Below are positions 2,446-31,690 of a stretch of 56,697 nucleotides of DNA, piece by piece. The DNA is from a virus, in UHGV virus genome UHGV-0866312; one strand, given 5' to 3'. Position numbers and translations under genes: made by a program. The notes beneath the pieces are model-generated. The model had not been told where the DNA came from and made no database searches. It saw nothing but the letters and a program-made list of their open reading frames with translations. The stretch's first letter is position 1, and the number at the start of each line of letters is the position of its first letter.

Positions 2446-2640
2446 ATGGTTAAAGCTAGATATTTTTATGATGATACTTTTTGTTTTAATTTTGATGATG
2501 TTGAAACATTTCAAGATTACTATGACAATATTTTAGCTACTGATGATAATTTAATGGTGCTAGAGTTTGATGGTAACAAGAAACCTAGTGACCCTGTGCC
2601 AGTCAAATTAACAGTTATTAAGGGTGGTCAAAATGATTAA
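2446..2640 (+). CDS. hypothetical small acidic protein (64 aa)
   Basis: ORF with a GGGGTGGGG RBS. Confidence 0.4.
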   Translation: MVKARYFYDDTFCFNFDDVETFQDYYDNILATDDNLMVLEFDGNKKPSDPVPVKLTVIKGGQND

Positions 2641-3151
2641 TGAAATTTGGAAAGATATTGTAGGCTATGAGGGGCTTTATAAAATAAGCAACTTAGGTAA
2701 TATAAAAAGCCTTAACTATAAGAGGACTGGAAAAGCACAGAATTTGTCATTAAGCAAAAATAGGGCTGGTTACTACCATGTATTTCTATATAAAGATAGA
2801 AAAGGTGTAGACTTTGATATACACTGGCTGGTGGCATATCACTTTATAAGTTTTATTCCACAGGTAGGAATTAAATATCATGTAAACCATAAAGATGAAA
2901 ATAAACTTAATAATAGTTTAAGTAATTTAGAAATAATATTAATGCAAGAAAATTTTAATTATGGTACAGCTAGGCAAAGGTCAGCACTGGCACAGAGTAT
3001 ACCAGTGATTTGTATAGAGACTGGTGTGGTTTACTCATCAGCTAGTGAGGCTAGTAGGCAGACTGGTGCAAGGCAAGAAACTATAAATAGGTGCTGTAAG
3101 GGTAAAGCAAAAACATCTAATGGCTATCATTGGAGGTATGCAAATGAATGA
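2633..3151 (+). CDS. HNH homing endonuclease (NUMOD4-like N-terminus + HNH)
   Basis: N-terminal MINEIWKDIVGYEGLYKISNLGNIKS and the NHKDENKLNN motif. Clear paralog of 41896-42414. The ATG at 2633 overlaps the upstream stop. Confidence 0.8.
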   Translation: MINEIWKDIVGYEGLYKISNLGNIKSLNYKRTGKAQNLSLSKNRAGYYHVFLYKDRKGVDFDIHWLVAYHFISFIPQVGIKYHVNHKDENKLNNSLSNLEIILMQENFNYGTARQRSALAQSIPVICIETGVVYSSASEASRQTGARQETINRCCKGKAKTSNGYHWRYANE

Positions 3152-3503
3152 GGATATTGTAGCTAGAATGACCAATTTAGAGGGTAAAATTTGGCTTTAT
3201 AGTATCATCTATTATAGATTAGGTAGCAGTATTGTTACTGATAAAAAATATGATGATATTAGTAAGGAAATGAAGAGGCTAAAAGAGGAATACCCAGAGG
3301 AATTTAAAGCTAGTAAGCATTATGATGTATTTAAAGATTTTGAGTGGCAAAGTGGCTACTATCTACCTTTATATGATATACACATGACTGCTGTAGCAGA
3401 GTTTGTATTAATGGTTAATAATAAAGGTATGGAGGCTTACAAAGACCATGTAGGTAGAGAGCCTATTAAAATAAAAGGAAAAAGAAGAAGAAAGAGAGGG
3501 TAG
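3144..3503 (+). CDS. hypothetical protein, basic C-terminus (KGKRRRKRG)
   Basis: ORF whose start (ATGAATGA) overlaps the HNH stop, suggesting translational coupling. Confidence 0.45.
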   Translation: MNEDIVARMTNLEGKIWLYSIIYYRLGSSIVTDKKYDDISKEMKRLKEEYPEEFKASKHYDVFKDFEWQSGYYLPLYDIHMTAVAEFVLMVNNKGMEAYKDHVGREPIKIKGKRRRKRG

Positions 3504-3523
3504 TAGAAATACTACTCTTTTTT
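3500..3523 (+). terminator. rho-independent terminator
   Basis: ggtagtagaaatactactc followed by TTTTTT. Confidence 0.65.
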
Positions 3524-3594
3524 AATAGTTTTTTGTCACAGATATACCCCACTGGGCATATACTTATAGTATAAAACAAAAAGGGGTGTAATTT

Positions 3595-4479
3595 ATGATA
3601 GTTACAATAGGGAAAAGCAATAGAAAGAGTGATATAAAAGACTTAACAAAGAAAAGAAAGGCTGTGAATTTACCAAAGTCTACAAAGGAATTTGAAAAGC
3701 TAATAGGGCAAGCAGAATACAGCACAAAGAAATACTTAGATAGAAGTAAATTAACTGATAAAGAGTTAATGGCTGTAGATGCTTATGAGAATATCACCAG
3801 CTTTGGTAGTGATGTAGCTGACTGCTTTGAGGACTTATTAGAAGAGTTAGGCAGAATACCTACACAAGAGGAATATGTAAATAGAGGTGTGGAATTAACT
3901 AGCATGTGGTGGTGTGAGGCTATATTAAAGCATGATAATAGGGTACTGGGTATTAACTTTGAGGGTGCTGTAGTGGATGCCTGTAAAGATAGATTAGGCA
4001 GAGGCTACATTAGTATGGTCAATGAATTACACACAAAGCTATTGTTAAAAGAGATTTACCCAAAGGCTAAAGTAATATCACATGACTTACTAGATTTATT
4101 ACTAGGTGTAGATATTGTTTTAGAGTTAGATAAGAAAAGATATTATATTCACATCTTTAAAGATAGTCATTATGGTGTGCAAGCTTTTTACAATAAAGAG
4201 CAAAGAGGTGGCATTAATAAAGATGGTAAGTTTATCAAGTATCAAAGAGACTTTACAGGTGATGTAAGGCTACAATATTTAAGCAGAGATACTAACAGTG
4301 ATAAATGTAAATTCATAAATGGTATGCCAGTGTTTACAAGGGAATGGCTAGAGGGGTACTTATTTATGGTCACTAGGAGCAGTAAATTTGGTGAGAGATT
4401 AGATGCAGAGGATAGCAAGCTGGATAAGTTAAAGGCTTTTGTATTTGATAACTTTGGTCAAAGAGTAGAATTTAAGTAA
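3595..4479 (+). CDS. hypothetical protein (294 aa); possible PD-(D/E)XK-like nuclease motif GVDIVLELDKK
   Basis: ORF preceded by a class 1 GTCACA cassette. The motif assignment is weak. Confidence 0.45.
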   Translation: MIVTIGKSNRKSDIKDLTKKRKAVNLPKSTKEFEKLIGQAEYSTKKYLDRSKLTDKELMAVDAYENITSFGSDVADCFEDLLEELGRIPTQEEYVNRGVELTSMWWCEAILKHDNRVLGINFEGAVVDACKDRLGRGYISMVNELHTKLLLKEIYPKAKVISHDLLDLLLGVDIVLELDKKRYYIHIFKDSHYGVQAFYNKEQRGGINKDGKFIKYQRDFTGDVRLQYLSRDTNSDKCKFINGMPVFTREWLEGYLFMVTRSSKFGERLDAEDSKLDKLKAFVFDNFGQRVEFK

Positions 4480-4559
4480 TTAATTATATGATGGTGTCTA
4501 CTAAATGGTTATATTAGTGGACACTATCAGCATTATAGAGTATGATAGAGGTAGGATTT

Positions 4560-5438
4560 ATGAGTAAGAAAATATTACATTTATTCCAATGGAAATTAAC
4601 AGATATTATTACAGTATTACCAAAGGTAAAAGAGCAAGGCTTTGATGCTATACAAGTATCACCATTGCAAGGTACTAAAGATGCTGGATATGAGTGGTGG
4701 AAATTATACCAGCCCACAAATTTTAAAATAGGTAATTCACAGGTAGGCAGTAGGGATGACCTTATTAAACTTTGTGGCAAAGCACATAACTTAGGTATAG
4801 AGGTTTATGTAGATGTAGTATTAAGGCATGTAGCTGGTGATGATTACCACCATTTAGTACCACATGATACTGTAGATGCAGACATTAAGCCAGAATATTA
4901 TTACTGCTTTGATGAATGTAATGACTACAATAATAGATATGAATATACACATAAATGTACTGGGATGCCTATGCTAAATTATTTTAGTCATGATGTACAA
5001 GATATGTATATTAATTACTTAGATGACCTTGTTTGCTGTGGTGTGGATGGCTTTAGATTAGACCAGCTAAAACACTATGCCTTACCTGTAGAGGGCTGTG
5101 ATTTCCTACCTAGAGTATTTGGTAGATACACTGATAAATATATCTATGGTGAAATTATATTCAGTGATAAGGTGCTGTTAAATGCATATTCAAAATATAT
5201 GAATGTACTAACAGAGGGTAGCTGTGATAATAAAGATAGGCTGGTTACTTTTGTAGAAAGCCATGACAGCTATTTAGAGTTTGGATATACAAAGAATATG
5301 AGTAATGAAATGTTATTAATGGAATATGACCACCTAGTAAATGAATGTGATTTTAATACATTATTCTATGCTAGACCATTTAATAATTTATGGTTATCAA
5401 GTGAAATTAAAAAGATAAATTTGAAAGGATGTATTTAG
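4560..5438 (+). CDS. GH13 alpha-amylase family catalytic-domain protein
   Basis: Conserved GH13 regions: DVVLRH (region I), GFRLDQLKH (region II), GEII (region III), FVESHD (region IV). The N-terminus has the AIQVSPLQ barrel start. There is no domain C. Confidence 0.7.
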   Translation: MSKKILHLFQWKLTDIITVLPKVKEQGFDAIQVSPLQGTKDAGYEWWKLYQPTNFKIGNSQVGSRDDLIKLCGKAHNLGIEVYVDVVLRHVAGDDYHHLVPHDTVDADIKPEYYYCFDECNDYNNRYEYTHKCTGMPMLNYFSHDVQDMYINYLDDLVCCGVDGFRLDQLKHYALPVEGCDFLPRVFGRYTDKYIYGEIIFSDKVLLNAYSKYMNVLTEGSCDNKDRLVTFVESHDSYLEFGYTKNMSNEMLLMEYDHLVNECDFNTLFYARPFNNLWLSSEIKKINLKGCI

Positions 5439-5439: not shown

Positions 5440-6030
5440 ATGAATAAGGCTTATATGAGATTATCACAAAAGGACAGCATTAAAAATGGCAATGGCTTTG
5501 ACAGGCAAAAGCATTTATTAAAGGATATAGAAATAGATACATGGTATCAAGATGTTATTAGTGGTGCTAAAAGAAATAGACCACAGCTAGATAAGATGCT
5601 GGAAGAGTTAGAGGCTGGGGATATTGTTTATATACCAGCTATTGACAGGTTATCAAGAAGTACAAAAGACCTTTTAGAAATTGTAGAGATAATTAAAAAT
5701 AAGGGTGCTTACTTAGTTAGCATTAATGATACATGGTTAGATACAAGGGCTAGTAACCCTATGTCAGATTTCCTTTTGACTGTTATGGGGGCTATGGCAC
5801 AGCTAGAGAGGGATATGATAGCTAAAAGAATTAAGCAAGGTGTAGAAAATGCTATAGAGCAAGGCAAGGTTATAGGCAGACCACCAGTAAACAGTGACAG
5901 AGTATTAGAGGCTGTCAAGATGTATAAAGAGACTGGTAAGAGCATGAGGGAAATAGAGGCTATTACAGGGGTCAGTAAATCAGCAATATCAAAAGCATTA
6001 AAGAAAAATAAGACAATTTCAGAGCAGTAA
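5440..6030 (+). CDS. small serine recombinase (resolvase/invertase family) with C-terminal HTH
   Basis: YMRLSQKDS with a catalytic Ser context, DRLSRS, and the C-terminal HTH SMREIEAITGVSKSAISKAL. 196 aa. Confidence 0.7.
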   Translation: MNKAYMRLSQKDSIKNGNGFDRQKHLLKDIEIDTWYQDVISGAKRNRPQLDKMLEELEAGDIVYIPAIDRLSRSTKDLLEIVEIIKNKGAYLVSINDTWLDTRASNPMSDFLLTVMGAMAQLERDMIAKRIKQGVENAIEQGKVIGRPPVNSDRVLEAVKMYKETGKSMREIEAITGVSKSAISKALKKNKTISEQ

Positions 6031-6035: not shown

Positions 6036-6066
6036 GGGGGTAGCTTTAATAGCTACTCTTTTTTTG
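6036..6066 (+). terminator. rho-independent terminator followed by class 2 element TTGTGCCTATTAGG
   Basis: gggggtagctttaatagctactc followed by TTTTTTT. Confidence 0.65.
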
Positions 6067-6098
6067 TGCCTATTAGGTGTAAGCTAGGAGGTGCAAAA

Positions 6099-7826
6099 AT
6101 GAGCAGAAAACATGAGATTGAGAAAAAGTTAAAACAGATAGAAATGGTTAGGGATAGCATTTTAGCTGAAATAAATAAGGGTAGGACAAAGAAAGCCAGA
6201 AAGCAGAGACTACAGGATTATGCAGAGGACTTAAATGCTATTGAAAGAGAATACAGAAAGACTAGAAGTGAGATAGATGTATTATTCTTTGCTTATGAGT
6301 ATTTCAGTGATGAGAGAAACCCAGACAATGACAATAACTTAATACCACTGGGTGCTACCTTTGAAAATGCCCCAGCTATTCATAGAGAATTATGTACCAT
6401 GCTGGATGCTATTACCTTTGAAGAGCATGACAGTAAAATAGGCTGGTCAGTACCCAGAGGACATGCAAAGTCTACTTATGTATCTAATATCTATCCTATA
6501 CACTGCTGTATTTTTGAGGGTGATACACCACATGGTAGAAAGTATATATTAATCCTTTCAGAGACAGAGGATTTAAGTAAGAAATTTATTGAGTATATCA
6601 AAGACCAATTAAAGCATAATCAAAAGCTTAGAGAGGACTTTGGGGAATTATTAAGTACAAAGAAATTTGAAAATGAAAAGGATAATAGTGGTGAATTTAT
6701 CACTACAAAAGGTACTTTGGTTAGGGCTGGGTCAATTGGTAAAGCTTTAAGGGGTGCTAGAAATAAAGCATACAGACCAGACCTAGTAATATGTGATGAC
6801 CTTGAAAGTATGGAAAATACAAACACACCAGAGTTAAGAGAGAAAAATTTATTCTGGTTTAATTCAGTAGTATCACCAGTAGGTGAAAAAGGCAGAACAG
6901 CATTTCTTTATGTTGGTACTATGGTGCATGGTCAAGGGCTATTACCAGACATATTAAGCAGAATTGATTATAAGAGTAAGATTTATTCAGCTATTGTAGA
7001 GTACCCAGAGGAAACAGACTTATGGCAAAAATATGAGGATATTTTAAGTGATAAGACTGACCCAGATAGAGAGGATAAAGCAGATGCTTTTTACTTTGAG
7101 CATAAAGAGGAAATGGACAAAGGCTGTAAAACACTTTGGTCAGAAAGATGGACTTACAGAGAGTTAATTAAAGAGAAAGTAAAAATAGGTAGTAGGGCTT
7201 TCAGTAGTGAGTATTTAAATTTAGCTAGTGATAAGGAAAGTATGATTTTCCATGATGGTATTTTTACTTACTTTGATGAGCCAGATTTATATGACCAAAA
7301 TGGTAGACCTAGACCTATGGACATTTATGGCTTTTGGGATTTAGCTATTAAGGATAAGAAAAGAAGTGACTTTAATGCCATTGTAATTGTAGGTAGAGAT
7401 AGAATTACAGGGGTAATGTATGTGCTGGATGCATGGAGTGGTAAAGTGCCAGTACACAAAGCATTAGAGCATTGTATAAAAATGATTGAGCAATGGAAAC
7501 CAAAGATACTAGGTGTAGAAACAATACAGGCACAATATGAGTTATACAGACAGCTACAAGAAAAGTTATTCAAGCTGGGTATTTACTATACAAGATTAAA
7601 GCCAGTAAACCCAAAGGCTAAAAAAGAGGAAAGAATTGAGGTACTAGAGCCTTTATTTGAGACTGGTTTTTTAAGAATTAAAAGGACACAAAGAATGTTA
7701 ATAGAGCAGTTAGAACAATTCCCAAATGGTGACCATGATGACCTACCAGATGCTTTAGCATCAGCAGTAGACATAGCTGGGAAACAAAGAAAAAGAAGTC
7801 ACTACAATAAACCTAAAGGACTATAG
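6099..7826 (+). CDS. terL: terminase large subunit
   Basis: Walker A-like VPRGHAKST, a C-terminal nuclease-like acidic region, and a position before the portal gene. The start at ATG 6099 follows a TAGGAGGTG RBS. Confidence 0.85.
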   Translation: MSRKHEIEKKLKQIEMVRDSILAEINKGRTKKARKQRLQDYAEDLNAIEREYRKTRSEIDVLFFAYEYFSDERNPDNDNNLIPLGATFENAPAIHRELCTMLDAITFEEHDSKIGWSVPRGHAKSTYVSNIYPIHCCIFEGDTPHGRKYILILSETEDLSKKFIEYIKDQLKHNQKLREDFGELLSTKKFENEKDNSGEFITTKGTLVRAGSIGKALRGARNKAYRPDLVICDDLESMENTNTPELREKNLFWFNSVVSPVGEKGRTAFLYVGTMVHGQGLLPDILSRIDYKSKIYSAIVEYPEETDLWQKYEDILSDKTDPDREDKADAFYFEHKEEMDKGCKTLWSERWTYRELIKEKVKIGSRAFSSEYLNLASDKESMIFHDGIFTYFDEPDLYDQNGRPRPMDIYGFWDLAIKDKKRSDFNAIVIVGRDRITGVMYVLDAWSGKVPVHKALEHCIKMIEQWKPKILGVETIQAQYELYRQLQEKLFKLGIYYTRLKPVNPKAKKEERIEVLEPLFETGFLRIKRTQRMLIEQLEQFPNGDHDDLPDALASAVDIAGKQRKRSHYNKPKGL

Positions 7827-7841: not shown

Positions 7842-9386
7842 ATGTATTATTGTACACAAGGGATAAGCTTTAAAAAGGGTGAGCAATTCCCTTTTAAAAG
7901 TCACTATCCTAGAATTGAAAGATATAGGGAAAATATGAAACTATTCAAAGGTGAGCATTATGATATATTCAGAAAATATAATGTAAAAGCCTTTAATGAT
8001 ATTTACATTGCAGTCAATTTAGCTGGTTTAATTTGCAAAAAGAGTGCTGATTTATTACTAGGGGAAGAGCCTATAATTAGTGCTGGTAAAGAGGATAATA
8101 GTAATGAGCAATTAGCTATAGATAGATTTACAGATAGCAATTACATGGACATTGTAAATTATGAGAGTGCTTTGTTTAATGCTGTCAAGGGTGATAGCTT
8201 TTATAGAGTTAGATATGGTCAAGAAAATGGTGGCATCTTTACTGATGAGGAATATAGAGTATTTATTGAGGGCATAGCACCAGACCATGTATTTCCAGAG
8301 GTATCACCATTAAATAAAAAGCAGATTGTAGTATATCATTACTGTGTACCATCTTATGATGAGAATACAGAAAGCTGGTCATTAATTTGTGAAAGTCATG
8401 GGGCTGGATATGTGCTTTACCATAGCTATGATTTAAAGCCTATACAAGTAAATGTATTAGGTGAGGTAGAAAAGTTTACTATAGGTGATATGATTGATGA
8501 GCCTAAATATACCTTGACAGGGGTTAATAAACCATTAATTGTACACATTCCTAACATGGCTAGTGGTGATAACTGGGAGGGGCTAGATGACCTATCTGAA
8601 AATAAAGGGCTATTTGATGAATTAAATAACAGGCTATCACAAATAGCATCTATCTTAGATAAGCATAGTGACCCAGCACTAGCAGTACCTACAGGATTAT
8701 TACAAGAGGATGAGAATGGTAATACTAAATTTAGGGTAGCTGTAGATAAGGTTTTTGAGGTGCTAGGTAAAGATGATATTATACCACAATACATTACATG
8801 GAATGGTAACTTACAAGAGGCTATTACTGAAATGAAAGAGGTAGTAAATTTAATCTTAATGAATAGTGAAATACCAGCTATAGCACTAGGCTTATCAGAT
8901 ACAGGTACTAGTGGTAGTAGTGGATTATCCATTAAATTCAGAATGAATAGTTTACTATCTAAGATTAAGAGAAAAAGATTATATTACAAGAAAGGATTAA
9001 AACAGGTATACACTGTAGCACAAGAATTAGAGACAGCTTTGGGAATTGCTAATTATGATGTAGTAAACCCACACATTAAGTTTAATGATGGCTTACCTAC
9101 TGATGACTTACAAGATGCTAACATTATGAATGTAAGAACAGGTGGAGCAGTTACAATGTCTCAAAAGACTGCTATTATGAGACTTGACAATATGACAGAG
9201 GAACAAGCAGAGGCAGAATTAAAGAGAATTGAAGAGGAACAGAAAGCAACTGCTAACACCTTTGGTACACCAGATATATTTAACCTTGAAGATGAGGGGC
9301 AAGATGGTGAGGGTGTAGACCCTAGCTTAACTGCTGTTAATGAAGAGGCTAACCAAAATAGTAAAGTACAAGATGCTGAAAATTAA
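7842..9386 (+). CDS. portal protein
   Basis: 514 aa, immediately downstream of terL, with an acidic C-terminus. Confidence 0.7.
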   Translation: MYYCTQGISFKKGEQFPFKSHYPRIERYRENMKLFKGEHYDIFRKYNVKAFNDIYIAVNLAGLICKKSADLLLGEEPIISAGKEDNSNEQLAIDRFTDSNYMDIVNYESALFNAVKGDSFYRVRYGQENGGIFTDEEYRVFIEGIAPDHVFPEVSPLNKKQIVVYHYCVPSYDENTESWSLICESHGAGYVLYHSYDLKPIQVNVLGEVEKFTIGDMIDEPKYTLTGVNKPLIVHIPNMASGDNWEGLDDLSENKGLFDELNNRLSQIASILDKHSDPALAVPTGLLQEDENGNTKFRVAVDKVFEVLGKDDIIPQYITWNGNLQEAITEMKEVVNLILMNSEIPAIALGLSDTGTSGSSGLSIKFRMNSLLSKIKRKRLYYKKGLKQVYTVAQELETALGIANYDVVNPHIKFNDGLPTDDLQDANIMNVRTGGAVTMSQKTAIMRLDNMTEEQAEAELKRIEEEQKATANTFGTPDIFNLEDEGQDGEGVDPSLTAVNEEANQNSKVQDAEN

Positions 9387-9475
9387 TAGATAATTAGCTG
9401 TCACAATAATACCCCTATAGGTATATATTATATTATAAAGATAAATAAATAATAGATACTGAAAGGGGTATAAAT

Positions 9476-9637: not shown

Positions 9638-9697
9638 ACCTAAAGGGGGCTTTAAATAGCCCTCTTTTTTTATTGCTTATAAATAGAGGTGATGAAT

Positions 9698-10615
9698 ATG
9701 AGCAACATACCAGAGCCTACTTATATAAGAAATAAAAAGAAGATAAGCAAATTATATGAGGTGGCATTAAAGGACTTATACAAACTATTGATAAATGCAC
9801 TGGCTTTAAATGGTGCTGGGGATATTAAAACAGTAAATCAAGCTAAATTAATTATACAAATAGAGCAGAGAGTAGCACAGTTACAAGGTGATATAAAGGG
9901 TGAGGTAATAAAGGCATTAAGAGAGGCTTTTACACAAGGTCAGCTAGATTATCTACTAGCAGTACATGAGGCTGACAGCCTAGAGGATGCTATGAAAAAG
10001 GCTGGATTTAATCAGCTACAAATGGATAGGATAGAGGCTATTTTTAGTGACACTTTCAAAGATTTATTAATAGCTACTGAAAATACAAAAGAGAATATTA
10101 AGAAAGTTATAAGACAGACTACCAGCAAATTAATGCAGTATGAAATAGCTGTCAATAACAGTAAACACCAAATGCAAAAGCTATTATATGACCAGCTTGT
10201 AAAGAAAGGATTAAGTAAGACTATTACAGGTGAGGGCTTTGTAGGTGTAATAGATAAGGCTGGTAGGAAGTGGAATTTAAAAACTTATTCAGACATGGTA
10301 GTAAACACTAAGCTACAGCAAGCACATGTAGAGGGTACTACTACAAAGGCACAAGAGTATGGAATGGATTTAGCTATAGTATCTAGTCATGGAGCAAAAG
10401 ACCCTTGTAGAGAATTTGAGGGCATGGTGATTAGTTTGACTGGTGCTACTAAGGGCTTTCCTACTTATAGAGAGTTGAAAGCTACTAAAAAGATTTTCCA
10501 CCCTAACTGTCAGCATAATGTTACACCTATCAGAAACTTTGACAAATTACATTCTAAGACCAGAGAAAAGCACCAAAAGCTGTATGAGGATTATGTAGCA
10601 AATAAAGAAAAGTAA
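9698..10615 (+). CDS. head morphogenesis protein (SPP1 gp7/Mu F-like, inferred from position)
   Basis: About 305 aa, after the portal gene, in the typical gene order. Confidence 0.5.
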   Translation: MSNIPEPTYIRNKKKISKLYEVALKDLYKLLINALALNGAGDIKTVNQAKLIIQIEQRVAQLQGDIKGEVIKALREAFTQGQLDYLLAVHEADSLEDAMKKAGFNQLQMDRIEAIFSDTFKDLLIATENTKENIKKVIRQTTSKLMQYEIAVNNSKHQMQKLLYDQLVKKGLSKTITGEGFVGVIDKAGRKWNLKTYSDMVVNTKLQQAHVEGTTTKAQEYGMDLAIVSSHGAKDPCREFEGMVISLTGATKGFPTYRELKATKKIFHPNCQHNVTPIRNFDKLHSKTREKHQKLYEDYVANKEK

Positions 10616-11426: not shown

Positions 11427-12287
11427 ATGGCTGGAATTAGTTTAGCACAATCAGCAAAAATGACACAAAATGAGTTACAAGCTGGTGTAATTGAAATACT
11501 AGCAACTGAAAGTAAATTATTAAATATCTTACCATTTATGAATGTTGTGGGTAGTGGATATAGCTACAATGTAGAAAAGAATTTAGGGTCAGCACAATTC
11601 AGAAATGTTAATGAGGCTTATAATAGCAATGCTATTGAAACTGATTTAAGAACAGAGGCACTTGTTATCTTAGGTGATGAGGCTGTAGTAGATACATTCC
11701 AAATTGCTACACACTCTAATGTAAATGACTTAATGGCTATTGAAGTAGCTTTAAGGACAAAAGCAATAGCTAACCAATATGAAAAGTCTTTCATCAATGG
11801 TAAAGGTACTGCAAAAGACTTTAAGGGTATCTTATTTAGATATGAAGATGTATCAGCTAATGAAGTACAAAAAGCACAAGTATTTGAGGCTGGTGATAGC
11901 TTAGTAGATGATATTGATGTTTTATTAGATAGTGTATTAGGTGGAGCAGATGCCTTAATTATGAATAAGAAAACTAGAAGAGCATTAACATCAGTAGCTA
12001 GAACATCATGTGAATATAAACAATATGAATATGGTACACAATTTACATTATATGGTGGATTACCTATTATTGATGTTGAAACTGAAATTTTAGCAGATAA
12101 CTATGTTATTGCTGTTAAGTTTGGTGTTAAAGAGGCTGTATGTGGCTTACAAAATGGTAGTATTCAAGTTACACCATTAGGAGAAATGGAAAGTAGCCCA
12201 GCTTTAAAAACAAGAATTGAATGGTTCTGTGGTATGGCTATTTTCAATGATAAGAAAGTAGCTATCAGAAAACCAAAGGCTGTGTAG
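11427..12287 (+). CDS. major capsid protein
   Basis: 286 aa after the scaffold gene, with a strong RBS AAAGGAGGGG. Confidence 0.6.
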   Translation: MAGISLAQSAKMTQNELQAGVIEILATESKLLNILPFMNVVGSGYSYNVEKNLGSAQFRNVNEAYNSNAIETDLRTEALVILGDEAVVDTFQIATHSNVNDLMAIEVALRTKAIANQYEKSFINGKGTAKDFKGILFRYEDVSANEVQKAQVFEAGDSLVDDIDVLLDSVLGGADALIMNKKTRRALTSVARTSCEYKQYEYGTQFTLYGGLPIIDVETEILADNYVIAVKFGVKEAVCGLQNGSIQVTPLGEMESSPALKTRIEWFCGMAIFNDKKVAIRKPKAV

Positions 12288-14048: not shown

Positions 14049-14465
14049 ATGGCTAAAATAGCTGGTGTAGATGTACTAGTAATGGTAGACACAAGTGATG
14101 GAGTGGCAGAGGCTAAATATACACCTGTAGGTGGACAAAAAGGGGCAACATTAAATAGGTCAGCAGAGACTATTGATGTTACTGATAAAAATAGTAATGG
14201 ATGGTCAGAGAATATGGCTGGTATTAAATCATGGTCATTAGACTGTGATGGATTTGTAGTGTTAGATGATACAGCACTAGAAAAATTGGAGGATGCTTTT
14301 GAAAATAGAACACCTGTAAAAGTGCAAATGGCTATAGGTAAGAAACAATATTCTGGTGAGGGTTATATAGTAGATTTCCCACTTGAAGCCCCACTAGATG
14401 ATGCAGTAACTTACAGCTTATCTATTGTAAATGCAAGCCCACTAACATCAGCCCCAGTGGTTTAA
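14049..14465 (+). CDS. major tail (tube) protein
   Basis: 138 aa with the pattern typical of siphovirus tube proteins. It sits upstream of the chaperone pair. Confidence 0.65.
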   Translation: MAKIAGVDVLVMVDTSDGVAEAKYTPVGGQKGATLNRSAETIDVTDKNSNGWSENMAGIKSWSLDCDGFVVLDDTALEKLEDAFENRTPVKVQMAIGKKQYSGEGYIVDFPLEAPLDDAVTYSLSIVNASPLTSAPVV

Positions 14466-14475
14466 AAACATTAAG

Positions 14476-14504
14476 GAGTGTCAGAAATGGCACTCTTATT
14501 TTTT
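14476..14504 (+). terminator. rho-independent terminator
   Basis: gagtgtcagaaatggcactc + ttatttttt, immediately followed by GTCACA. Confidence 0.6.
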
Positions 14505-14581
14505 GTCACAGATTATACCTATTAGGGTATTTAATATCATAAGAAAACAGTTAATAGCTGTGATGATAAGGAGTGATTTAA

Positions 14582-14935
14582 ATGGCTAAAAAGGAAATGC
14601 CTAGAGCAAAAAAGAAAAGAGTTATAAATGTTGGTAAAAAGACATCAATTATTTTAAATGATGAGGAAATGTTTTTAGTATTCAATATGTATGCCCTTGA
14701 AAAATTAGAGGATATGGGTATAGATATAATGAAACTAGATACTGATAATGTCAAGATTAAAGATTTAGTAAGCATTATTTACTGTGGCTTACTTTGCTAT
14801 GATGAGGATATTGAGAGAATTGATGTAGCTAAAATGATTGACCTTAACAATATTGATTATGTATCAGAAAAGCTAACAGAGGCTTTAAATAAAGATACAA
14901 AAGGTGATATGGAAGTAGAAGAGGGAAAAAACTAG
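14582..14935 (+). CDS. tail assembly chaperone (gpG-like)
   Basis: 117 aa, acidic. It ends just after the slippery heptamer A_AAA_AAC (14926-14932). Confidence 0.7.
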   Translation: MAKKEMPRAKKKRVINVGKKTSIILNDEEMFLVFNMYALEKLEDMGIDIMKLDTDNVKIKDLVSIIYCGLLCYDEDIERIDVAKMIDLNNIDYVSEKLTEALNKDTKGDMEVEEGKN

Positions 14936-15312
14936 TAACCCTAGCTGGCATAGCTGGTAACAATAAATACAAGTTAGGATATGGACTATTAGGGCTGTCA
15001 GTAGATGAGTTTTATGGCATGAGAATTAAAGACTTTTTAAATATGGTTAATGGTAAATTGCTATATGAAACTAACTACAATGATACTAGGATGGACATTA
15101 ATTTAATGTGGTTAAGCCATTTCTTTGCTTGTAACATGTTAGCTAGTGGGAACATGAAAAAAGGAATGACCCCAGAAAAAATAAGAAAGAATTATCTATA
15201 TATGACAGAGGATGAAAGAGAGAAAGAGACACAACCAAAGGTACACAAAGTAGATAGGGAAAAACTAGAGGCTGAAAAAGAGGCATTAAGAAAACAATTT
15301 AATTTAGACTAA
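14582..15312 (+). CDS. tail assembly chaperone -1 frameshift product (gpGT-like)
   Basis: Frame 1 is open from 14908 through 15312 and overlaps the chaperone 3' end. The canonical X_XXY_YYZ heptamer AAAAAAC lies in the overlap. Confidence 0.65.
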
Positions 15313-15350
15313 CTGGGGGTGCTTAATGTACCCCTTTTATTATATGTGAG

Positions 15351-16010
15351 GTGAATGATATGTATGGAAAAATTAAAGATGATAAATTAATATATGCCCC
15401 AGTAAATTATCTAACATCAGAGGGTAAAATGATATTTAATTTTAATGAAAATGTTGAGGCTATGAAAGCCAATGGATTTAAAGAGGTAATAGATGATATA
15501 CCTAAATATGATGAGAATATTTATAAACTAAAGTTTGATGGCTACAATGAGACAGCTACAAACATTATAGTAGTGTATACTACAGAGCCTTTAGAATTAA
15601 CACCAGAGCAAAAGAAAGCTTATGAGCAAAAGTTAGCATTGACATTTTTAGGTGATATGCTTACTGATGAGCAAGCCTTACAAGTACCTAGCATTTTTAA
15701 TGAGTGGCAAGCTGGTGTAGGTTATAAGACTGGTACTAAGCTTTTATATAATGGTGTTTTGTATAAGGTATTACAAGACCATAGCAGTCAAGCAGACTGG
15801 ACACCAGACAAAGCACCTAGCTTATTTGCAAAAGTTATCAATGAGACATTAGAGGGTGATATACCAGACTGGGTACAGCCAGATAGCACTAACCCTTATA
15901 TGACAGGTGATAAGGTGAAATTTGAGGGTAAAGTATATGAGAGTTTAATAGATAATAATACATGGTCACCTACTGAATATCCTACAGGGTGGAAAGAATT
16001 AGCACAGTAA
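15351..16010 (+). CDS. protein with two CBM5/12 (chitin-binding type 3) domains
   Basis: YNGVLYKVLQDHSSQADWTPDKAPSLF and YMTGDKVKFEGKVYESLIDNNTWSPTEYPTGW match the ChiC-type CBM5/12 consensus. Confidence 0.7.
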   Translation: MNDMYGKIKDDKLIYAPVNYLTSEGKMIFNFNENVEAMKANGFKEVIDDIPKYDENIYKLKFDGYNETATNIIVVYTTEPLELTPEQKKAYEQKLALTFLGDMLTDEQALQVPSIFNEWQAGVGYKTGTKLLYNGVLYKVLQDHSSQADWTPDKAPSLFAKVINETLEGDIPDWVQPDSTNPYMTGDKVKFEGKVYESLIDNNTWSPTEYPTGWKELAQ

Positions 16011-16120
16011 AATAAACTGGCACTCACAGCAATGTGGGTGCTTTTTAGCTTTAAAAGAATATTCCTACATGGTAACTATTATAGGATAGAATACTACAAA
16101 TATTTACAGGAGGGAGTGAA

Positions 16121-16828
16121 ATGAATTTTAATCCTACAGACAGAGTATATAGCATCTACCTAGATGTAATGACTGGGTTAGGCAGTGGCAGTGGTAGTGC
16201 TACTTTTTACAATACTGATAACCTAACATGTTATATAGTGCTTTATTTAACTAATGGTAATACTGCTATTGATATGACTAGCTATAACTATATTTTAAGT
16301 ACAGAGAAACCAGATGGAACAGTATACAGAGACAACTACACTACTACTGATGCAGATAGCTTAGTAATACAGCTTACTACTGATATGTTATCAGCCATAG
16401 GTACTGTAAAATGTCAATTATATATTATGGATGATACAAAGAGGACAACTATTATACCTTTTACCTATAAGGTAAGTGCTGGTTTATATAATGAGTTAGC
16501 ACCAGAAAGTGAAAATCATGATAGCTTTTACACAGAGTTAAAGGCTACTATTGACCATATTATAGGTGAGGGTGGTGTACTAGATACAGCAAATGCATAC
16601 ACAGATACTAAGGTTAATGAGGCAAAGAAATATACAGATACAAAGATAATTGAGGCAAATAGTTATACTGATGAAAAAGTTAAGGTGGTATCAGATATTT
16701 TAGAAAATATGAATAAAAAAGAATTAGTTACACACTTTAATTATTCCACAGTAGCACTTACATTAGACCCTTACCAATATGTTAATATCACTAATGATAC
16801 TACCTTTACATTACCTACAGCCCCCTAA
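16121..16828 (+). CDS. tail structural protein (Ig/BppU-like, YTDTK repeats)
   Basis: 235 aa. Ends ...GCC CCC TAA. Confidence 0.5.
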   Translation: MNFNPTDRVYSIYLDVMTGLGSGSGSATFYNTDNLTCYIVLYLTNGNTAIDMTSYNYILSTEKPDGTVYRDNYTTTDADSLVIQLTTDMLSAIGTVKCQLYIMDDTKRTTIIPFTYKVSAGLYNELAPESENHDSFYTELKATIDHIIGEGGVLDTANAYTDTKVNEAKKYTDTKIIEANSYTDEKVKVVSDILENMNKKELVTHFNYSTVALTLDPYQYVNITNDTTFTLPTAP

Positions 16829-17678
16829 CCTTACTGAATTACACTTATATTGTAATATAAATAGCTTTGTACAAATGTTAGTATTTCCCCTAGATGTAAA
16901 ATGGATTAATCAGCCACCTATTTACACACATTCTCTTATAGAATACAAACTTACAAAGTTACCAGATACATGGATATGCAATGCTACAGCATACCCAGTC
17001 AGCCCAAAATTAGTTGAAAATGGTATAAAGTTTAATTACAATGCTGATGGTATATCTGGTGAAAATTGGTATGACACTGACAATAAATCTTATTGGTATA
17101 GCACTATAAGTGGTGTAACAATAGATGAATACCTAAATGGATTTAGGCTAATACAAAGGACTACAATATCAAATACATGGATAAGAATGCCTAAACAGCC
17201 TATCACATTAGAAATGTATTTACTTTTAGAAAGTGTAAAAGAGGGTGTAAAAGTACCTTTATTTACAAATTACAGCAGTGATACTTATTTATTTGTGATA
17301 AATATTTCTGGTGGCTTTGTTTATTTCTACTATAAAAATAATGCTGGTAGCACTACTTTTAGCTATGTTACCCTTTGCCCAGTTAGTAAGCTTACAGATG
17401 GTAATATGCATCACTTTGCATTAGTAGTGAATGAGAATAAAGAGATTAATTTTTACCTAGATGGTATATTGCAAGTCAGTGTAGTAGCAAGTGATTATAA
17501 TATTACTGATACTGCTACAGGAAATGGTCAATTTAAATTAGGAGCATCCACAGATAATGGCAATACCATCTATGATGTTGCTGGATGTATATATAATTTA
17601 AAATTATATTATAGGACATTATCACAAGAAGAAATACAAACAAACTATCTATATGAGGCATCAAAGGAATGGAGATAG
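16121..17678 (+). CDS. putative +1 frameshift fusion: tail protein + C-terminal LamG/ConA-like lectin domain
   Basis: The downstream ORF in the +1 frame has no RBS or plausible start; its in-frame first ATG gives a hydrophobic non-protein-like N-terminus. CCC_UAA lies at the overlap, and the C-terminal region has LamG-like features (FALVVNENKEINFYLDG). Confidence 0.45.
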
Positions 17679-17761
17679 TTAAAAACTATTAGAGGGCAGA
17701 AATGCCCTTTATTTTTATGCCTTTTACTGGGTCATTTATTGACTATGTAGGAGGTGAGTAC

Positions 17762-20671
17762 ATGGCTGGAATTGGAGAAATTAAAGCTAAGATTTCTATA
17801 GATTTAAGTGGCTTAAAGAAAGGACTACAAGAAGTAGGTAGCAGTATAGCTAGTGCTACAAACAATATTAAGGGTATGACTACTACACTTAATCAAGTAG
17901 AAACTAGAGCAGAGCATACAGGTACTAGCATTAGAGGTATTGGTGATGATGCTAATACAGGTGCTAATAATACTAGGTCAGCATTAAGTAGGATAGAAAC
18001 TGCTTTTGGTGGCATTAAGTCAGCTTGTAGCAATGCTGGTACAAAGATTAAAGAGACTTTTAAGAGCAGTCAAAAGTCTATTAAGGAATTTACTGATAAG
18101 CTGGATGAGACTGGTGATAAGCTTAGTGAGTTAGGTGATAGCATAACCCCTATAACTACTGCATTAGCTGGCTTTGCTATTGCTGGTGTAGGTGCTAGTG
18201 AGAATATAGATAATGCATTAAAGAATGTAAATACACAATTAGGGCTTACAGGTGATAATGCTGATGCATTAAAAGAGAATATCAGCAATGTAGCTAAGAC
18301 AGGTGTAGGTGGCTTTGATGAGGTAGCTGAAAGCCTAGTTATTGTTAAAAAGAATTTCAAGGACTTAGATGGTAAAGAGTTAGAAGATATGACCATTAAG
18401 GCTATGCATTTAGCTGATGTTACTGGGTCAGATGTAAATGAGACAATGAGAACAGCATCACAGTTAGCTAATAACTTTGGTATATCTGGTGATAAGGCAA
18501 TGGACTTAATCACTAAAGGCTTTCAAAATGGCTTAAATAATGCTGATGACTTTAATGACACCATTAAGGAATATTCACAGGATTTTAAGGGGCTAGGATT
18601 TACCAGTGAGGAATTTTTCAGCATCCTTGATAATGGCTTAAAAAATGGTGCTATGAATACTGATGTAGTAGCTGATGCATGGAGAGAATTTGGTATTAAA
18701 GTTAGAGAGGGAGAGGACACAGTAGGGGAGGCATTTAAGACTGCTGGTGTCAACTACAATGATTTTATTACTGAATTTAATAAGGGTGGAGAAAGTAGCC
18801 AGCAAGCAATACAAGGACTTGTAGAGAAAGTAATGGCTATTGAAGACCCTATTAAAAGACAGCAAACAGCAGTAGCTATCTGGGGTACTAAAGTTGAGGA
18901 TATGGGATTAGGTGTTATTGATGTATTTGATGGTGTAGGTAATAAATATGATGATGTTGCTGGTAGTGCTGAAAAGTTAGCTAAAGATAATGAAAGCTTT
19001 ACACAAAGGATGCAAGGTGCATGGAATACATTACAAGAGGCTATTAAGCCTGTAGGTGATGTAATTAAAAACATGATAGCTGGTGCTGTAGAGGCTATAG
19101 TACCAATAGTAGAAAAGCTGGGTACTGCTTTTGCTAACCTACCAGCACCTATACAAAATGCTATTGTAATTATTGGTGGTGTCATTGCTGGTATAGCCCC
19201 TGTATTACTGGGTGTAGCTGGTGGTGTTAAGTTATTTAGTGGTGTACTAAAAACATTATCACCTGTTATCAGTGGTATAAAGGCTGGCTTTACTGGATTA
19301 GCTACAGCTATAGGTGGAATTTCAGCACCAGTATTAGCAGTAGTAGCAGTCATAGCAGTATTAGTAGGTGCTTTTATATATGCATGGAATAATGTTGATG
19401 GCTTTAAAGAGGGTGTCATAAATGCATGGAATGTCATTAAGGATGCTGTCACAACTGCTGTACAGGCTGTGTGGTCAACTATTCAAGATGTTTGGTCAGC
19501 TATAAAGCCTTATGTAATGGACACTTTTAACTCTATAAAGGAAATAATATCATCAGTATTTACTACTGTGGTAACTGTAGTAACTACTGTAGTAACTGCT
19601 GTATGGAATGTAATACAAACTGTGTGGGGCTTAATTCAGCCTTATATAACAACTATCTTTACTGGTGTATTCACTGTAATTAGTGGTATCTGGCAAACTA
19701 TTTCTAGTTTTATTTCTGGGATAATGAATGTCATCAAAGATATTTTTACAGGTAACTGGGATGCTATTGGTGGTCACATTAAAGAGGCTTGTAGTGGTAT
19801 CTGGGAGGGCATACAAACTATCTGGGATGGTATTAAAACTTACTTATCTGGTATGATGGGTGCTTTAGGTGATTTAATAAAAGCTGGATGGCAAGTAGTT
19901 AAATCAGTTACAACAAGTATCTTAAATGTTGTTAAATCAGTAATTAGTAGTATTTGGAATAGTATTAAATCAGTAATTAGCAATGTCTTAAATGCTATTA
20001 AGTCAGTGATAAGCAGTGTGTGGAATGGTATTAAGTCTACTATCACAAGCATTTTAAATGGTATTAAGTCTACAGCATCTAGTATATGGAATGGTATTAA
20101 GTCTACTATTAGCAGTATAGTAAATGGTATCAGCAGTACAGTATCTAGTGTATTCAATGGCATTAAGTCTACTGCTACATCTATCTGGAATGGTATTAAA
20201 TCAGCTATTACCAGCCCTATAGAAAGTGCAAAAAGTACAGTATTAGGCATTGTAGATAATATTAAAAGTGCTTTTAATAACATGAAAATCAGCATACCAA
20301 AGCCTAAATTACCACATATCAGTGTAGGTAGTAAATCATTCTTAGGTGGTAAGGTGTCTATACCTACATTCTCTATTGACTGGTATAAAACTGGTGGTAT
20401 AGCTACTGGTGCTAGTGTAGTAGGTGTAGGTGAGAAAGGTGATGAGGCTATAGTACCTTTGAGTGATAAGCATAGAATGAAACCTTTTGCAAGTGCTGTA
20501 GCTGATATGATACAAGAGCATGATGGTGGTAATGATGGTGATGGTGGCAAAGTTGAAAATAACTTTAATATAAGCAGTTTGGTAGTAAGGGAAGAGGCTG
20601 ACATAGATAGAATAGCAGAAAAATTAGAAACCCTACAAAGGAGAGAAAAGAGAAAAAGGGGGTTAAAGTAA
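17762..20671 (+). CDS. tail tape measure protein
   Basis: About 970 aa, Gly/Ala/Ser-rich with TM-like stretches and about 9 tandem 11-aa repeats (WNGIKSxISSI). AGGAGGTG RBS before ATG 17762. Confidence 0.85.
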   Translation: MAGIGEIKAKISIDLSGLKKGLQEVGSSIASATNNIKGMTTTLNQVETRAEHTGTSIRGIGDDANTGANNTRSALSRIETAFGGIKSACSNAGTKIKETFKSSQKSIKEFTDKLDETGDKLSELGDSITPITTALAGFAIAGVGASENIDNALKNVNTQLGLTGDNADALKENISNVAKTGVGGFDEVAESLVIVKKNFKDLDGKELEDMTIKAMHLADVTGSDVNETMRTASQLANNFGISGDKAMDLITKGFQNGLNNADDFNDTIKEYSQDFKGLGFTSEEFFSILDNGLKNGAMNTDVVADAWREFGIKVREGEDTVGEAFKTAGVNYNDFITEFNKGGESSQQAIQGLVEKVMAIEDPIKRQQTAVAIWGTKVEDMGLGVIDVFDGVGNKYDDVAGSAEKLAKDNESFTQRMQGAWNTLQEAIKPVGDVIKNMIAGAVEAIVPIVEKLGTAFANLPAPIQNAIVIIGGVIAGIAPVLLGVAGGVKLFSGVLKTLSPVISGIKAGFTGLATAIGGISAPVLAVVAVIAVLVGAFIYAWNNVDGFKEGVINAWNVIKDAVTTAVQAVWSTIQDVWSAIKPYVMDTFNSIKEIISSVFTTVVTVVTTVVTAVWNVIQTVWGLIQPYITTIFTGVFTVISGIWQTISSFISGIMNVIKDIFTGNWDAIGGHIKEACSGIWEGIQTIWDGIKTYLSGMMGALGDLIKAGWQVVKSVTTSILNVVKSVISSIWNSIKSVISNVLNAIKSVISSVWNGIKSTITSILNGIKSTASSIWNGIKSTISSIVNGISSTVSSVFNGIKSTATSIWNGIKSAITSPIESAKSTVLGIVDNIKSAFNNMKISIPKPKLPHISVGSKSFLGGKVSIPTFSIDWYKTGGIATGASVVGVGEKGDEAIVPLSDKHRMKPFASAVADMIQEHDGGNDGDGGKVENNFNISSLVVREEADIDRIAEKLETLQRREKRKRGLK
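19900..20215 (+). repeat. 33-bp (11-aa) tandem repeats within the tape measure gene
   Basis: Repeating ...IKSVISSIWNSIKSVISNVLNAIKSVISSVWNGIKST... Confidence 0.7.
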
Positions 20672-20672
20672 T

Positions 20673-21467
20673 ATGAGTTTTTTATTAAAGTTTAACAATG
20701 TTGAGATACCTAGTTTTGTAAGGGTGCTTAGTGTAAATACTAGCATCCTACCAGCTATTACACATAGAAAGGCTGTAATACCTAACCATTTTGGTAATGT
20801 GGATGGTGGTGTAGAATTTGGGTCAAAAGCATTTAATATAAAAATATTGATAATAAAAGATAGCAAGAATGATGATGAATATTATACAAGAGAATTAGCA
20901 AAATGGTTAAGGGGTGACAATTTTAATATCAGTAAGCTAGAGTTAGATGATACTGGAAAATACTATAAGGCTAGATGTACTGATGCTGTAGATGTAGATG
21001 ACCTAGTAATGTATGGTACTGGTACTTTAGTATTTACAGCCAGTGACCCTAGAAGATATAACAATGTAGTTACTAAGCAAACTATATATTCAACTGGTCA
21101 GACTAATGGTAATACATCTATTGATGAGGTAGCAAATTCAATTACCTTTAAATACACTTATACTGGTGATATAAATGCATTACCTAAATATACTATTACT
21201 TTTGATAACACATGCACTAATGTTAAGATAGCTAATACTACACTAGGATTAACCAGCAATATTACAAATAGCTTTAAGGCTGGGGATGTATTAATAGTAG
21301 ATAACATTACTAAGAAAATAAGGCTAAATGATGCAGATGCTATGGAATTATTTAATATAGATGGTGACTTTACAAAGATACAAGAGGGTAAAAATGAAAT
21401 AGTCTTTACCTTTACTGGTAACTTACCAAAGTCAATAGTAATGGAATATATAGCAGTATACTTTTAA
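20673..21467 (+). CDS. distal tail protein (Dit)
   Basis: 264 aa immediately after the TMP gene, with the start overlapping the TMP stop. Confidence 0.6.
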   Translation: MSFLLKFNNVEIPSFVRVLSVNTSILPAITHRKAVIPNHFGNVDGGVEFGSKAFNIKILIIKDSKNDDEYYTRELAKWLRGDNFNISKLELDDTGKYYKARCTDAVDVDDLVMYGTGTLVFTASDPRRYNNVVTKQTIYSTGQTNGNTSIDEVANSITFKYTYTGDINALPKYTITFDNTCTNVKIANTTLGLTSNITNSFKAGDVLIVDNITKKIRLNDADAMELFNIDGDFTKIQEGKNEIVFTFTGNLPKSIVMEYIAVYF

Positions 21468-21573
21468 GTCACAGTTAAACACTGTGGCTTTTTTATTTAG
21501 TGACCTTAAAAATGCCAGTTTAAAAGAGTAATTAAAAGACTAAAAGGAGTGAAGAAATAAGGAGGGTATAAGT

Positions 21574-30121: not shown

Positions 30122-30463
30122 TTTGCCCCTACAATGCCCCTAGAGGCTTTTATAACAGCTTTTATTATAGAGTAGACTTACTAGACCTTTAAATTAAAGT
30201 CTATTCCTAGAGGCTGTTAGGGCTATTTATAAAGGTGGTTTACAATATTTTTCTAGTAAAACAAGAATGGCACTATCACTGGCTTATAAAAAATAGAGTT
30301 ACATATTAATTCAGCAAAGAGGCTGATAGGTTAAAAGGCTATTGTTATGTATACCATATGTCACAGAAAATAGGACAGGTGCATATATTAATAGGTGAGG
30401 ATATAACTGCTATAACTTCTTATATCTTTTATATATAACAACAAAGTAACTGTTAAATAATAG

Positions 30464-31678: not shown

Positions 31679-31690
31679 GAGGTGTAGCCT

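Follow-up and report, generated by a model that had tools for sequence, protein, structure and literature searches.

The closest described relatives of the protein presented here are two α-amylases of glycoside hydrolase family 13 (GH13), AmyE of Bacillus subtilis (structures 1BAG and 1UA7) and Amy16 of Ruminococcus bromii (9QF9), both assigned to subfamily GH13_28 (PMC12663171). Virus-encoded GH13 genes have also been listed for mangrove-soil and rumen viromes (PMC6460857), and among the auxiliary metabolic genes (AMGs) of gut prophages GH13 is the second most abundant manually confirmed family of carbohydrate-active enzymes (CAZymes), with n=80 in 15 bacterial taxa (PMC10508911). We analysed a phage GH13 gene located at positions 4560..5438 (+ strand) of the UHGV virus genome UHGV-0866312, whose whole stretch of 56,697 nucleotides is called the window below. 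Like the GH13 AMGs of the virome and prophage surveys, this gene is flanked by phage genes and is proposed to boost host carbohydrate catabolism; those surveys annotate at catalogue level, with neither biochemistry nor, in contrast to the present analysis, the architecture of the enzymes. Cytoplasmic amylases are known as well: E. coli AmyA, a GH13 protein without a signal peptide, is thought to act on intracellular glycogen and maltodextrins, although it is full-length (~495 aa), carries A, B and C domains and belongs to another GH13 subfamily. No specific similarity of the phage protein to cytoplasmic AmyA-type amylases turned up in the searches run, none of which was aimed at AmyA. Judged from its sequence and a structural model, the phage protein adopts the GH13 fold and has a catalytic centre that is complete and strongly conserved, and it belongs to a large, previously unnamed clade of compact GH13 proteins common to Bacillota chromosomes and phages.

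The assignment to GH13, made in an original prediction from the DNA letters and their translations, was borne out by profile, sequence-to-PDB and fold searches, which agree with each other. Pfam PF00128 (Alpha-amylase) aligned to residues 14-174, scoring 44.3 bits where the cutoff is 22 (E 2e-11), and phmmer against PDB sequences returned the GH13 domain of R. bromii Amy16 at 6.6e-38 and the B. subtilis α-amylase at ~1e-26. An AlphaFold2 (AF2) model built with 40 homologues (pLDDT 90.5, pTM 0.90) shows a closed (β/α)8 barrel with a domain B inserted after β3, at about residues 91-143, and in PDB it is matched best by the folds of 1ua7, 1bag and 3dc0 (TMq 0.84-0.85, that to 1bag being 0.85) and 9qf9 (TMq 0.81). 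The four signature motifs quoted in the prediction (DVVLRH, GFRLDQLKH, GEII and FVESHD) were all found at the expected places. These and the other elements of the protein are, in order along the gene:

4695..4715, + strand: WWKLYQP (residues 46-52) in the β2 loop, aligned to AmyE NWYWLYQP; W46, W47, Y50 and Q51 invariant in the family
4812..4829, + strand: region I, DVVLRH (residues 85-90); D85, R89 and H90 invariant in 40 sequences
4965..4979, + strand: region V in domain B, degenerate (MPMLN for LPDLN), with Met138 at the position of AmyE D146
5049..5075, + strand: region II, GFRLDQLKH (residues 164-172), aligned to AmyE; G164-Q169, K171 and H172 invariant
5148..5159, + strand: region III, GEII (residues 197-200); G197 and E198 invariant, Glu198 being the general acid/base by alignment
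5160..5249, + strand: shortened β5-to-β7 segment; regions III and IV are 33 residues apart, whereas long relatives have 53-69 here
5250..5267, + strand: region IV, FVESHD (residues 231-236); E233, H235 and D236 invariant, Asp236 being the transition-state stabiliser by alignment
5355..5435, + strand: β8 (LFYARP, aligned to AmyE LFFSRP) and a short terminal helix (residues 281-288), ending where domain C would start

The Asp/Glu/Asp triad, whose loss would have spoken against the assignment, is intact. A HMMER alignment maps D168, E198 and D236 of the phage protein to D176, E208 and D269 of AmyE, as well as H90 to H102, R89 to N101 and M138 to D146; Asp168 is the catalytic nucleophile by the same alignment, and Arg166 and His172 are kept. 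Conservation was read from two alignments, of 121 and of 40 homologues at ~55% identity, and in the larger one little or no variation is seen at the triad, R166, H90, H172, H235 and the WWxLYQP loop, which in GH13_28-type amylases supplies the Tyr and Gln of subsite -1. Also nearly invariant is R89, which makes region I non-canonical, as GH13 usually has an Asn at this place (N101 in AmyE). We consider it very likely that the protein is an active GH13 enzyme acting on α-glucans.

The subfamily, which had been left to profile searches, could not be named in the same way. GH13_28 members are the top sequence and fold matches at 25-31% identity, but the compact proteins form their own neighbour-joining (NJ) bipartition against 66 long GH13_28-like sequences, and the Asp of region V (LPDLN), the region-I Asn, domain C and secretion are GH13_28 traits that the phage protein does not have. 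NCBIfam gave only far-sub-threshold matches to many GH13 equivalogs and, since none came near its cutoff, no subfamily name. We therefore file the protein at the level of GH13, with GH13_28 enzymes as its closest matches.

The phage protein resembles AmyE and Amy16, in spite of the low identity, in the triad, the WWxLYQP loop, the Arg and His residues found in regions I, II and IV, and a domain B that is short and contains an R-x-x-x-T motif. It differs from them by having no signal peptide, domain C, carbohydrate-binding module (CBM) or dockerin, by the disappearance of ~22-30 residues (α6) between regions III and IV, by Arg and Met at the places of the Ca ligands Asn101 and Asp146, by the sequence DQLKH instead of DAAKH after the nucleophile, and by its place in a separate, compact NJ clade. 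The compactness and the missing C domain noted in the prediction were seen in the model too, in which the chain stops 21 residues after β8 with one short helix. Domain C, a C-terminal antiparallel β-sandwich, is typical of α-amylases but it is not a catalytic requirement for GH13 membership. Its counterpart in the target structures is left unmatched, and this accounts for a TMt of only 0.59 in the fold comparison. Secondary structure assigned to the model by DSSP places β6 at residues 215-217 and β7 at residues 228-232 with no helix between them, which identifies the deleted segment as α6.

The calcium site appears to be lost as well. We take Asn101 and Asp146 of AmyE to be side-chain ligands of its structural Ca2+; in the phage protein both side chains are replaced (Asn by Arg89 and Asp by Met138), a change expected to abolish the canonical site, and for this reason the enzyme probably works without Ca2+. 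A signal peptide, for which the prediction had advised to look, is absent: β1 starts at residue 4 of the model and there is no room for one. In the same line, the WWxLYQP motif lies at a median of 45 residues from the N-terminus in the compact forms versus 97.5 in their secreted relatives. The Cys content of the compact proteins is 2.4%, versus 1.1% in the catalytic regions of the secreted ones (p=1e-19), and it reaches 3.4% in the phage protein (10 Cys in 292 residues); such high values are consistent with a reducing, cytoplasmic location. Nothing was found beyond the barrel, neither CBM nor dockerin nor virion-anchoring module. Taken as a whole, an architecture without domain C, α6, Ca site and signal peptide points to an intracellular role.

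The gene encodes 292 aa plus the stop, one residue fewer than first given, as the 293 codons of 4560-5438 include the stop codon. The open reading frame extends upstream to another in-frame ATG at 4542 (4542 to 5438, 298 aa), but the ATG at 4560 is the likelier start because it is preceded by a ribosome-binding site, AGAGGTAGG, at 4547-4555, and because homologues start with MKILHLFQW at the equivalent residue. Against the 96%-identical orthologue in the related contig L005 the gene has a dN/dS of 0.16, a value that indicates purifying selection.

A word-indexed search returned 357 clusters (90% identity) at E<=1e-5, and the best 120 of these 357 are all 281-314 aa long and 52-56% identical to the phage protein, with one at 96%. 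An exhaustive search of 1.84 billion representatives extended the set to 2057 relatives. About 90 of the top 150 (50%-identity clusters) are compact, with 276-335 aa starting at the barrel; the remainder are long and multidomain. The relatives at 29-34% identity are classical secreted amylases with signal peptide, domain C, and CBMs or dockerins, and the long secreted ones come from Ruminococcus, Anaeroplasma, Clostridia and Treponema. The two groups differ at three places:

Region I: DxVxNH in nearly all long sequences; in compact ones Arg in 38 representatives, Asn in 31, and T/H/E/D/G/A/V/S in others
Domain-B motif: G[LM]PD[LI]N in nearly all long sequences; Asp lost in compact ones, with rare exceptions such as P0166 and P0193
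Residues between regions III and IV: 53-69 in long sequences, 30-39 in compact ones

All 66 long secreted sequences keep the longer III-IV segment and nearly all keep the domain-B Asp, whereas in the ~90 compact representatives this Asp is lost and the α6 segment deleted, with few exceptions. The variability of the region-I residue among compact forms is as expected once the Ca site is gone. In the tree (custom NJ on p-distances, no bootstrap) one bipartition (Jaccard 0.97) unites the compact proteins, and inside it those with Arg in region I (Arg-type), to which the phage protein belongs, make up one clade (Jaccard 0.97). Two members clustering within the compact clade, P0171 (438 aa) and P0225 (669 aa), have extra C-terminal sequence, from which it follows that the compact core is occasionally fused to other domains.

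The distribution of the two main types differs. All Arg-type loci with enough flank to judge are on phage or viral contigs (that of L007 is too short), and they span at least three unrelated phage architectures: the UHGV-0866312 lineage with L005, L051, L061 and L062; phage contigs of 58-60 kb from pig and human gut, in which the gene follows those for dUTPase and ribonucleotide reductase (RNR), one representative, P0069, alone being present on 89 contigs; and a 277-kb contig with the gene near that for thymidylate synthase (ThyA). IMG/VR contigs of 52-126 kb carry an Arg-type gene too. In contrast, compact genes with Asn in region I (Asn-type) are found on bacterial chromosomes, among ordinary neighbours:

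Lon, TilS, YutD and ProRS, on a 425-kb contig
TsaD and TsaE, on a 173-kb contig
Dxs and a sigma factor
TyrRS and PrsW
A transposase, EamA and malic enzyme

The chromosomal Asn-type proteins of Bacillota (~295-320 aa; for example P0377, P0304, P0299, L008 and L023) are 40-46% identical to the phage protein and have the same architecture, with the triad kept, neither signal peptide nor domain C, α6 deleted and the domain-B Asp lost, and they fall in one clade with it. They differ from it by the region-I Asn, by region II (GFRFDAAK(H/S/N)) and by their housekeeping neighbourhoods and, being equally uncharacterised, offer no functional anchor. Their chromosomal contexts imply that the compact architecture serves an intracellular bacterial role. 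By this distribution, the compact form did not originate as a phage invention but as a bacterial, probably cytoplasmic one, the phages holding a specialised Arg-type offshoot.

The phage genome itself is unidirectional, of the siphovirus type and with 33% GC. The features of the window to which the argument refers are the following:

34-450, + strand: TerS, left edge of the island that contains the GH13 gene
2624-3151: HNH/NUMOD4 endonuclease
3120-3503: stand-alone Nlig-Ia domain protein
3492-3523, + strand: terminator-like hairpin, directly before the promoter-like element
~3530-3580, + strand: copy of the promoter-like element
3595-4479, + strand: 294-aa protein of no family (ORF294), directly upstream of the GH13 gene
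4489..4529, + strand: 16-bp hairpin/palindrome (GGTGTCTACTAA...TTAGTGGACACT region), dG -21.6 kcal/mol, z -3.3
4547..4555, + strand: Shine-Dalgarno-like AGAGGTAGG, read off the sequence, with its GAGG core 8 nt 5' of ATG 4560
5440-6030, + strand: small serine recombinase/invertase, starting 1 nt past the GH13 stop
6066-7826, + strand: TerL, right edge of the island
7842-9386: SPP1-type portal
9689-10615: minor head protein
11427-12287: major capsid protein
14049-14465: major tail protein
17702-20671: tape measure
20673-21467: Dit
21574-28521: Tal, 2315 aa
29393-30085: endolysin
30953-48749: replication genes, NrdD, dUTPase, Amidase_3, PolA
53061-54602: large serine recombinase (Resolvase, Recombinase and Zn-ribbon domains), near the right end

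That the gene is phage-encoded and no part of the tail, as had been proposed, is clear from these neighbours, with TerS and the HNH endonuclease upstream and recombinase, TerL and portal downstream. The island that holds it, bounded by terS and terL, measures 5.6 kb; the gene itself stands upstream of the tail module (~14049-28521) by ~9 kb and ~24 kb from the endolysin, and is part of neither the tail nor the lysis module. The order TerS ... ORF294, GH13, serine recombinase, TerL, portal, capsid and tail is common to L005, L051, L061 and L062. Across this lineage the GH13 proteins are 54-56% identical, TerL 62-65%, portal 59-60% and capsid 62-64%, and a divergence of the GH13 protein in step with TerL, portal and capsid indicates long-term vertical retention. 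The small serine recombinase, 63-68% identical among these phages, likewise keeps its place between GH13 and TerL. We rejected the idea that the GH13 gene is mobile cargo of this adjacent recombinase, as the cassette is syntenic and has co-diverged across the lineage. By TerL, the nearest isolated phages are Clostridium phages vB_CtyS-FA70 and FA67 (59%) and Paenibacillus larvae phages (45%); the FA70 genome has no terS-terL island of the GH13 kind. Scans of the window genome for tRNA genes and Rfam families came back empty, and looking up the exact sequences of its GH13 and integrase genes brought up no record of a source sample or a prophage junction.

Upstream of ORF294, the terminator-like hairpin is followed by one of six copies of a promoter-like element (1148-1198, 3530-3580, 9396-9445, 14500-14547, 41234-41281 and 50437-50484), each standing before a gene block. 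The element reads TTTTTGTCACA ... ATACC-N-GGTAT ... TATA(A/C)TATAAAGAT, with an internal palindrome, and its strict pattern has 3 matches in the genome versus 0 in 100 shuffles. The six copies may form a phage-specific set of promoters or operators, and ORF294, GH13, recombinase, TerL and portal are probably one transcription unit starting at ~3530. A sigma-70-like match, TGGACA-17-TATGAT at 4518-4546, was considered as a dedicated GH13 promoter and discarded, because it is not above shuffle expectation. The hairpin at 4489-4529 occupies the 80-nt spacer between ORF294 and GH13 and is not followed by a T-run; L061 and L062, in which hardly any DNA separates the two genes, do not have it. It may act in RNA processing or stability, or bind a protein.

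In the UHGV-0866312 phage lineage ORF294 always stands directly upstream of the GH13 gene. It has only 7 homologues among 5.8 billion proteins and no Pfam, PHROG or NCBIfam match; its AF2 model is confident (pLDDT 84) and yet gave no significant PDB fold match, nor did the sequence match any in PDB. The invariant residues include D167, D173, E177, K181, H186 and K189, which by eye are reminiscent of a PD-(D/E)xK nuclease.

On balance, the GH13 protein is probably a cytoplasmic α-glucan hydrolase by which the phage, during infection, draws on the glycogen or maltodextrin of its host; we infer the cytoplasmic location, the independence of Ca2+, the α-1,4-glucan substrate and the benefit to the phage. 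The enzyme would be a retaining GH13 α-glucan hydrolase consisting of barrel and domain B only, made inside the infected cell from a gene that would share a transcript with the packaging genes, starting at the promoter-like element near 3530. It would cut the α-1,4 linkages of a host storage glucan (glycogen or granulose) or of imported maltodextrins, and the oligosaccharides released would pass through host phosphorylases and glucosidases into glycolysis and the pentose-phosphate pathway. Energy and nucleotides would in this way be supplied for phage replication, and in that sense the gene would be an AMG. A logic of nucleotide supply fits the neighbours of the gene in other phages (RNR, dUTPase, ThyA) and the phage's own NrdD and dUTPase. 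Among the roles listed in the original prediction, intracellular degradation of glycogen is the one that fits best; those on surface glucans or exopolysaccharide are less likely, because the protein has no signal peptide, CBM or virion-anchoring domain.

Several points weigh against a glycogen-mobilising hydrolase. No glg or mal genes stand beside the compact genes, phage or bacterial, in any locus examined. Our best guess for the host is a Clostridium-like anaerobe (from the TerL similarity, the 33% GC and NrdD), and glycogen storage by the host is thus an assumption. The apparent co-transcription with packaging genes suggests late expression, which is late for energy supply. The specificity could differ from that of an endo-amylase, given DQLKH in place of DAAKH, the deletion of α6 and the polyspecificity of GH13. 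Finally, in the literature found, which lies mostly outside subscription journals, no natural GH13 enzyme without domain C is reported to be active.

The last but one of these points leads to an alternative that we regard as unlikely, in which the protein would be a transglycosylase, a hydrolase specific for α-1,6 linkages or for oligosaccharides, or an enzyme of small α-glucosides such as sucrose or trehalose. GH13 holds more than 30 specificities, the sequence D-Q-L-K-H after the nucleophile and the deleted β6-β7 segment are unlike all long relatives (D-A-A-K-H), and no NCBIfam equivalog comes near its cutoff. Moreover, the closest PDB sequence, R. bromii Amy16, is described as promiscuous for α-1,4 and α-1,6 linkages (PMC12663171). 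However, the nearest sequences and folds are all α-amylases, of GH13_28 and of the animal/Pseudoalteromonas type, the residues of the -1 subsite and domain B are conserved, and no matches favour the oligo-1,6-glucosidase, sucrose-active or trehalose-active subfamilies. Slightly less likely still is an enzyme released by lysis that would act outside the cell on α-glucan exopolysaccharide, biofilm matrix or dietary starch, freeing virions or exposing new hosts. Endolysins too have no signal peptide and depend on holins or lysis to reach their substrate, a late-acting enzyme would agree with the putative late co-transcription with packaging genes, and the closest characterised relatives are extracellular starch degraders; but the protein carries no CBM or starch-binding domain, it has lost the domain C and Ca site that are almost universally kept in the 66 long relatives, 3.4% Cys is atypical of extracellular Gram-positive proteins, the gene is outside the lysis cassette (endolysin at 29393-30085), and the bacterial members of the clade sit in housekeeping contexts without export signals. 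It is scarcely credible that the protein is a virion-associated depolymerase cutting surface α-glucan at adsorption or entry. Phage glycoside hydrolases are often tail-associated and this gene is in the late region beside packaging genes; against this, head genes separate it from the tail module ~9 kb downstream, its 292-aa product is a single-domain TIM barrel with no N-terminal anchor, β-helix or trimerisation domain, in other phage lineages it stands among genes of nucleotide metabolism, and Tal already has enzymatic (GDPD-like) domains of its own.

A role in the lysogen is improbable, to a degree not far from that of release by lysis. Expressed from the prophage, the amylase would act as a lysogenic-conversion or fitness factor, improving the use of maltodextrin or the turnover of glycogen; the large serine recombinase at 53061-54602 suggests a temperate lifestyle, GH13 is frequent among the manually confirmed AMGs of gut prophages (PMC10508911), and the same compact enzyme exists on bacterial chromosomes. 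This has to be set against the place of the gene between terS and terL, after a terminator and an element shared with the structural and replication modules, which is a typical lytic-cycle position, against the lack of an obvious independent promoter (the sigma-70-like match at 4518-4546 being no better than shuffled sequence), and against the virulent look of the other carriers, the ~59-kb RNR/dUTPase phages and the 277-kb contig. It is very improbable that a captured bacterial amylase is here decaying or has become non-catalytic, even though domain C, α6 and the Ca site are usually held necessary for amylase stability and the Pfam alignment spans residues 14-174 only. The length and architecture of the protein recur in hundreds of others (~90 clusters at 50% identity), the catalytic residues do not vary, dN/dS is 0.16, the AF2 model is confident with the barrel closed, and the gene has been retained vertically while its neighbours diverged to ~60% identity. 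In particular, family-wide conservation of length together with purifying selection led us to reject a truncated pseudogene. A cytoplasmic hydrolase of host α-glucan is therefore the reading that we retain.

Amylase-family enzymes had been called rare in phage genomes. This holds for the reference collections (PHROGs, INPHARED and BFVD) but not for metagenomes, where hundreds of close homologues are found on phage contigs. PHROGs has no match for the GH13 protein, and a fold search of BFVD returned only one giant-virus GH13 protein and generic TIM barrels. In INPHARED (tblastn, 50,697 records) there is no compact homologue, and the four matches are all UNVERIFIED faecal scaffolds; the two examined, MT839943 (L063, 1505-3166) and MT835768 (L064, 656-3787), encode long amylases with signal peptides, of 553 and 1043 aa, and probably derive from bacterial DNA present in the virus-like-particle preparations, not from phages. 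In the literature found there is no paper on phage amylases acting on glycogen and no description of a ~285-aa GH13 form without domain C. Phage GH13 genes are thus already known from gut surveys, and it is the miniature form that seems undescribed.

Other features of the genome were observed along the way. The 127-aa protein at 3120-3503 amounts to no more than the N-terminal Ia domain, the NAD+-binding one, of an NAD-dependent DNA ligase (PF22745, 2.5e-18). Two NUMOD4/HNH homing-endonuclease genes (2624-3151 and 41896-42414) share a 162-nt stretch of 73% identity (2818-2979 versus 42072-42233); the former is missing from the otherwise 96-99% identical L005, in which the adjacent Nlig-Ia gene is just 70% identical, and these two observations suggest a recent homing insertion with flanking recombination. 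The gene of Tal (21574-28521) contains three 459-nt tandem repeats (24369-25586), and the protein matches a PHROG of glycerophosphodiester phosphodiesterase (GDPD), which is a hint of a Gram-positive host bearing teichoic acid. The tape-measure gene contains eight to nine tandem repeats of 33 nt (11 aa) at 19949-20245. An exact direct repeat of 41 nt, AGGTAAAAATATTGACCTAAAGATAATAACTATATATAACT, with a TTGAC motif, is found in intergenic DNA at 1025-1065 and 30462-30502, 29 kb apart, and may be a duplicated regulatory site. There are two peptidoglycan-hydrolase genes, the endolysin after the tail module (29393-30085) and an Amidase_3 in the replication module (45718-46347), the latter adjoining the gene of a DUF4230 protein. 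The large serine recombinase at 53061-54602 is probably the integrase.

Looking beyond this genome, we put forward only tentatively, and with less confidence than for the single enzyme, that a phage-specific Arg-type clade of minimal, Ca-independent GH13 enzymes is common to diverse gut phages and serves to liquidate host glycogen or granulose during infection, feeding nucleotide synthesis. If this is true, it would represent a widespread and unrecognised glycogen-mobilising strategy of gut phages, among them siphoviruses, the ~59-kb RNR/dUTPase phages and at least one contig of ~277 kb, and would give the first natural proof of a GH13 amylase working with barrel and domain B alone and without α6 or the structural Ca2+. 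Mobilisation of host storage glucan would be added to the strategies of metabolic take-over by gut phages, and the gene offers a concrete, testable case among the GH13 AMGs that virome surveys list without biochemistry. Should the enzyme be active, it would define a minimal GH13 scaffold of ~285 aa without domain C, α6 or Ca site, show what these accessory elements contribute to amylases, and help the engineering of small Ca-independent ones. The clean split between chromosomal Asn-type and phage Arg-type proteins makes the compact clade a tractable example of how a captured host gene becomes specialised in phages.

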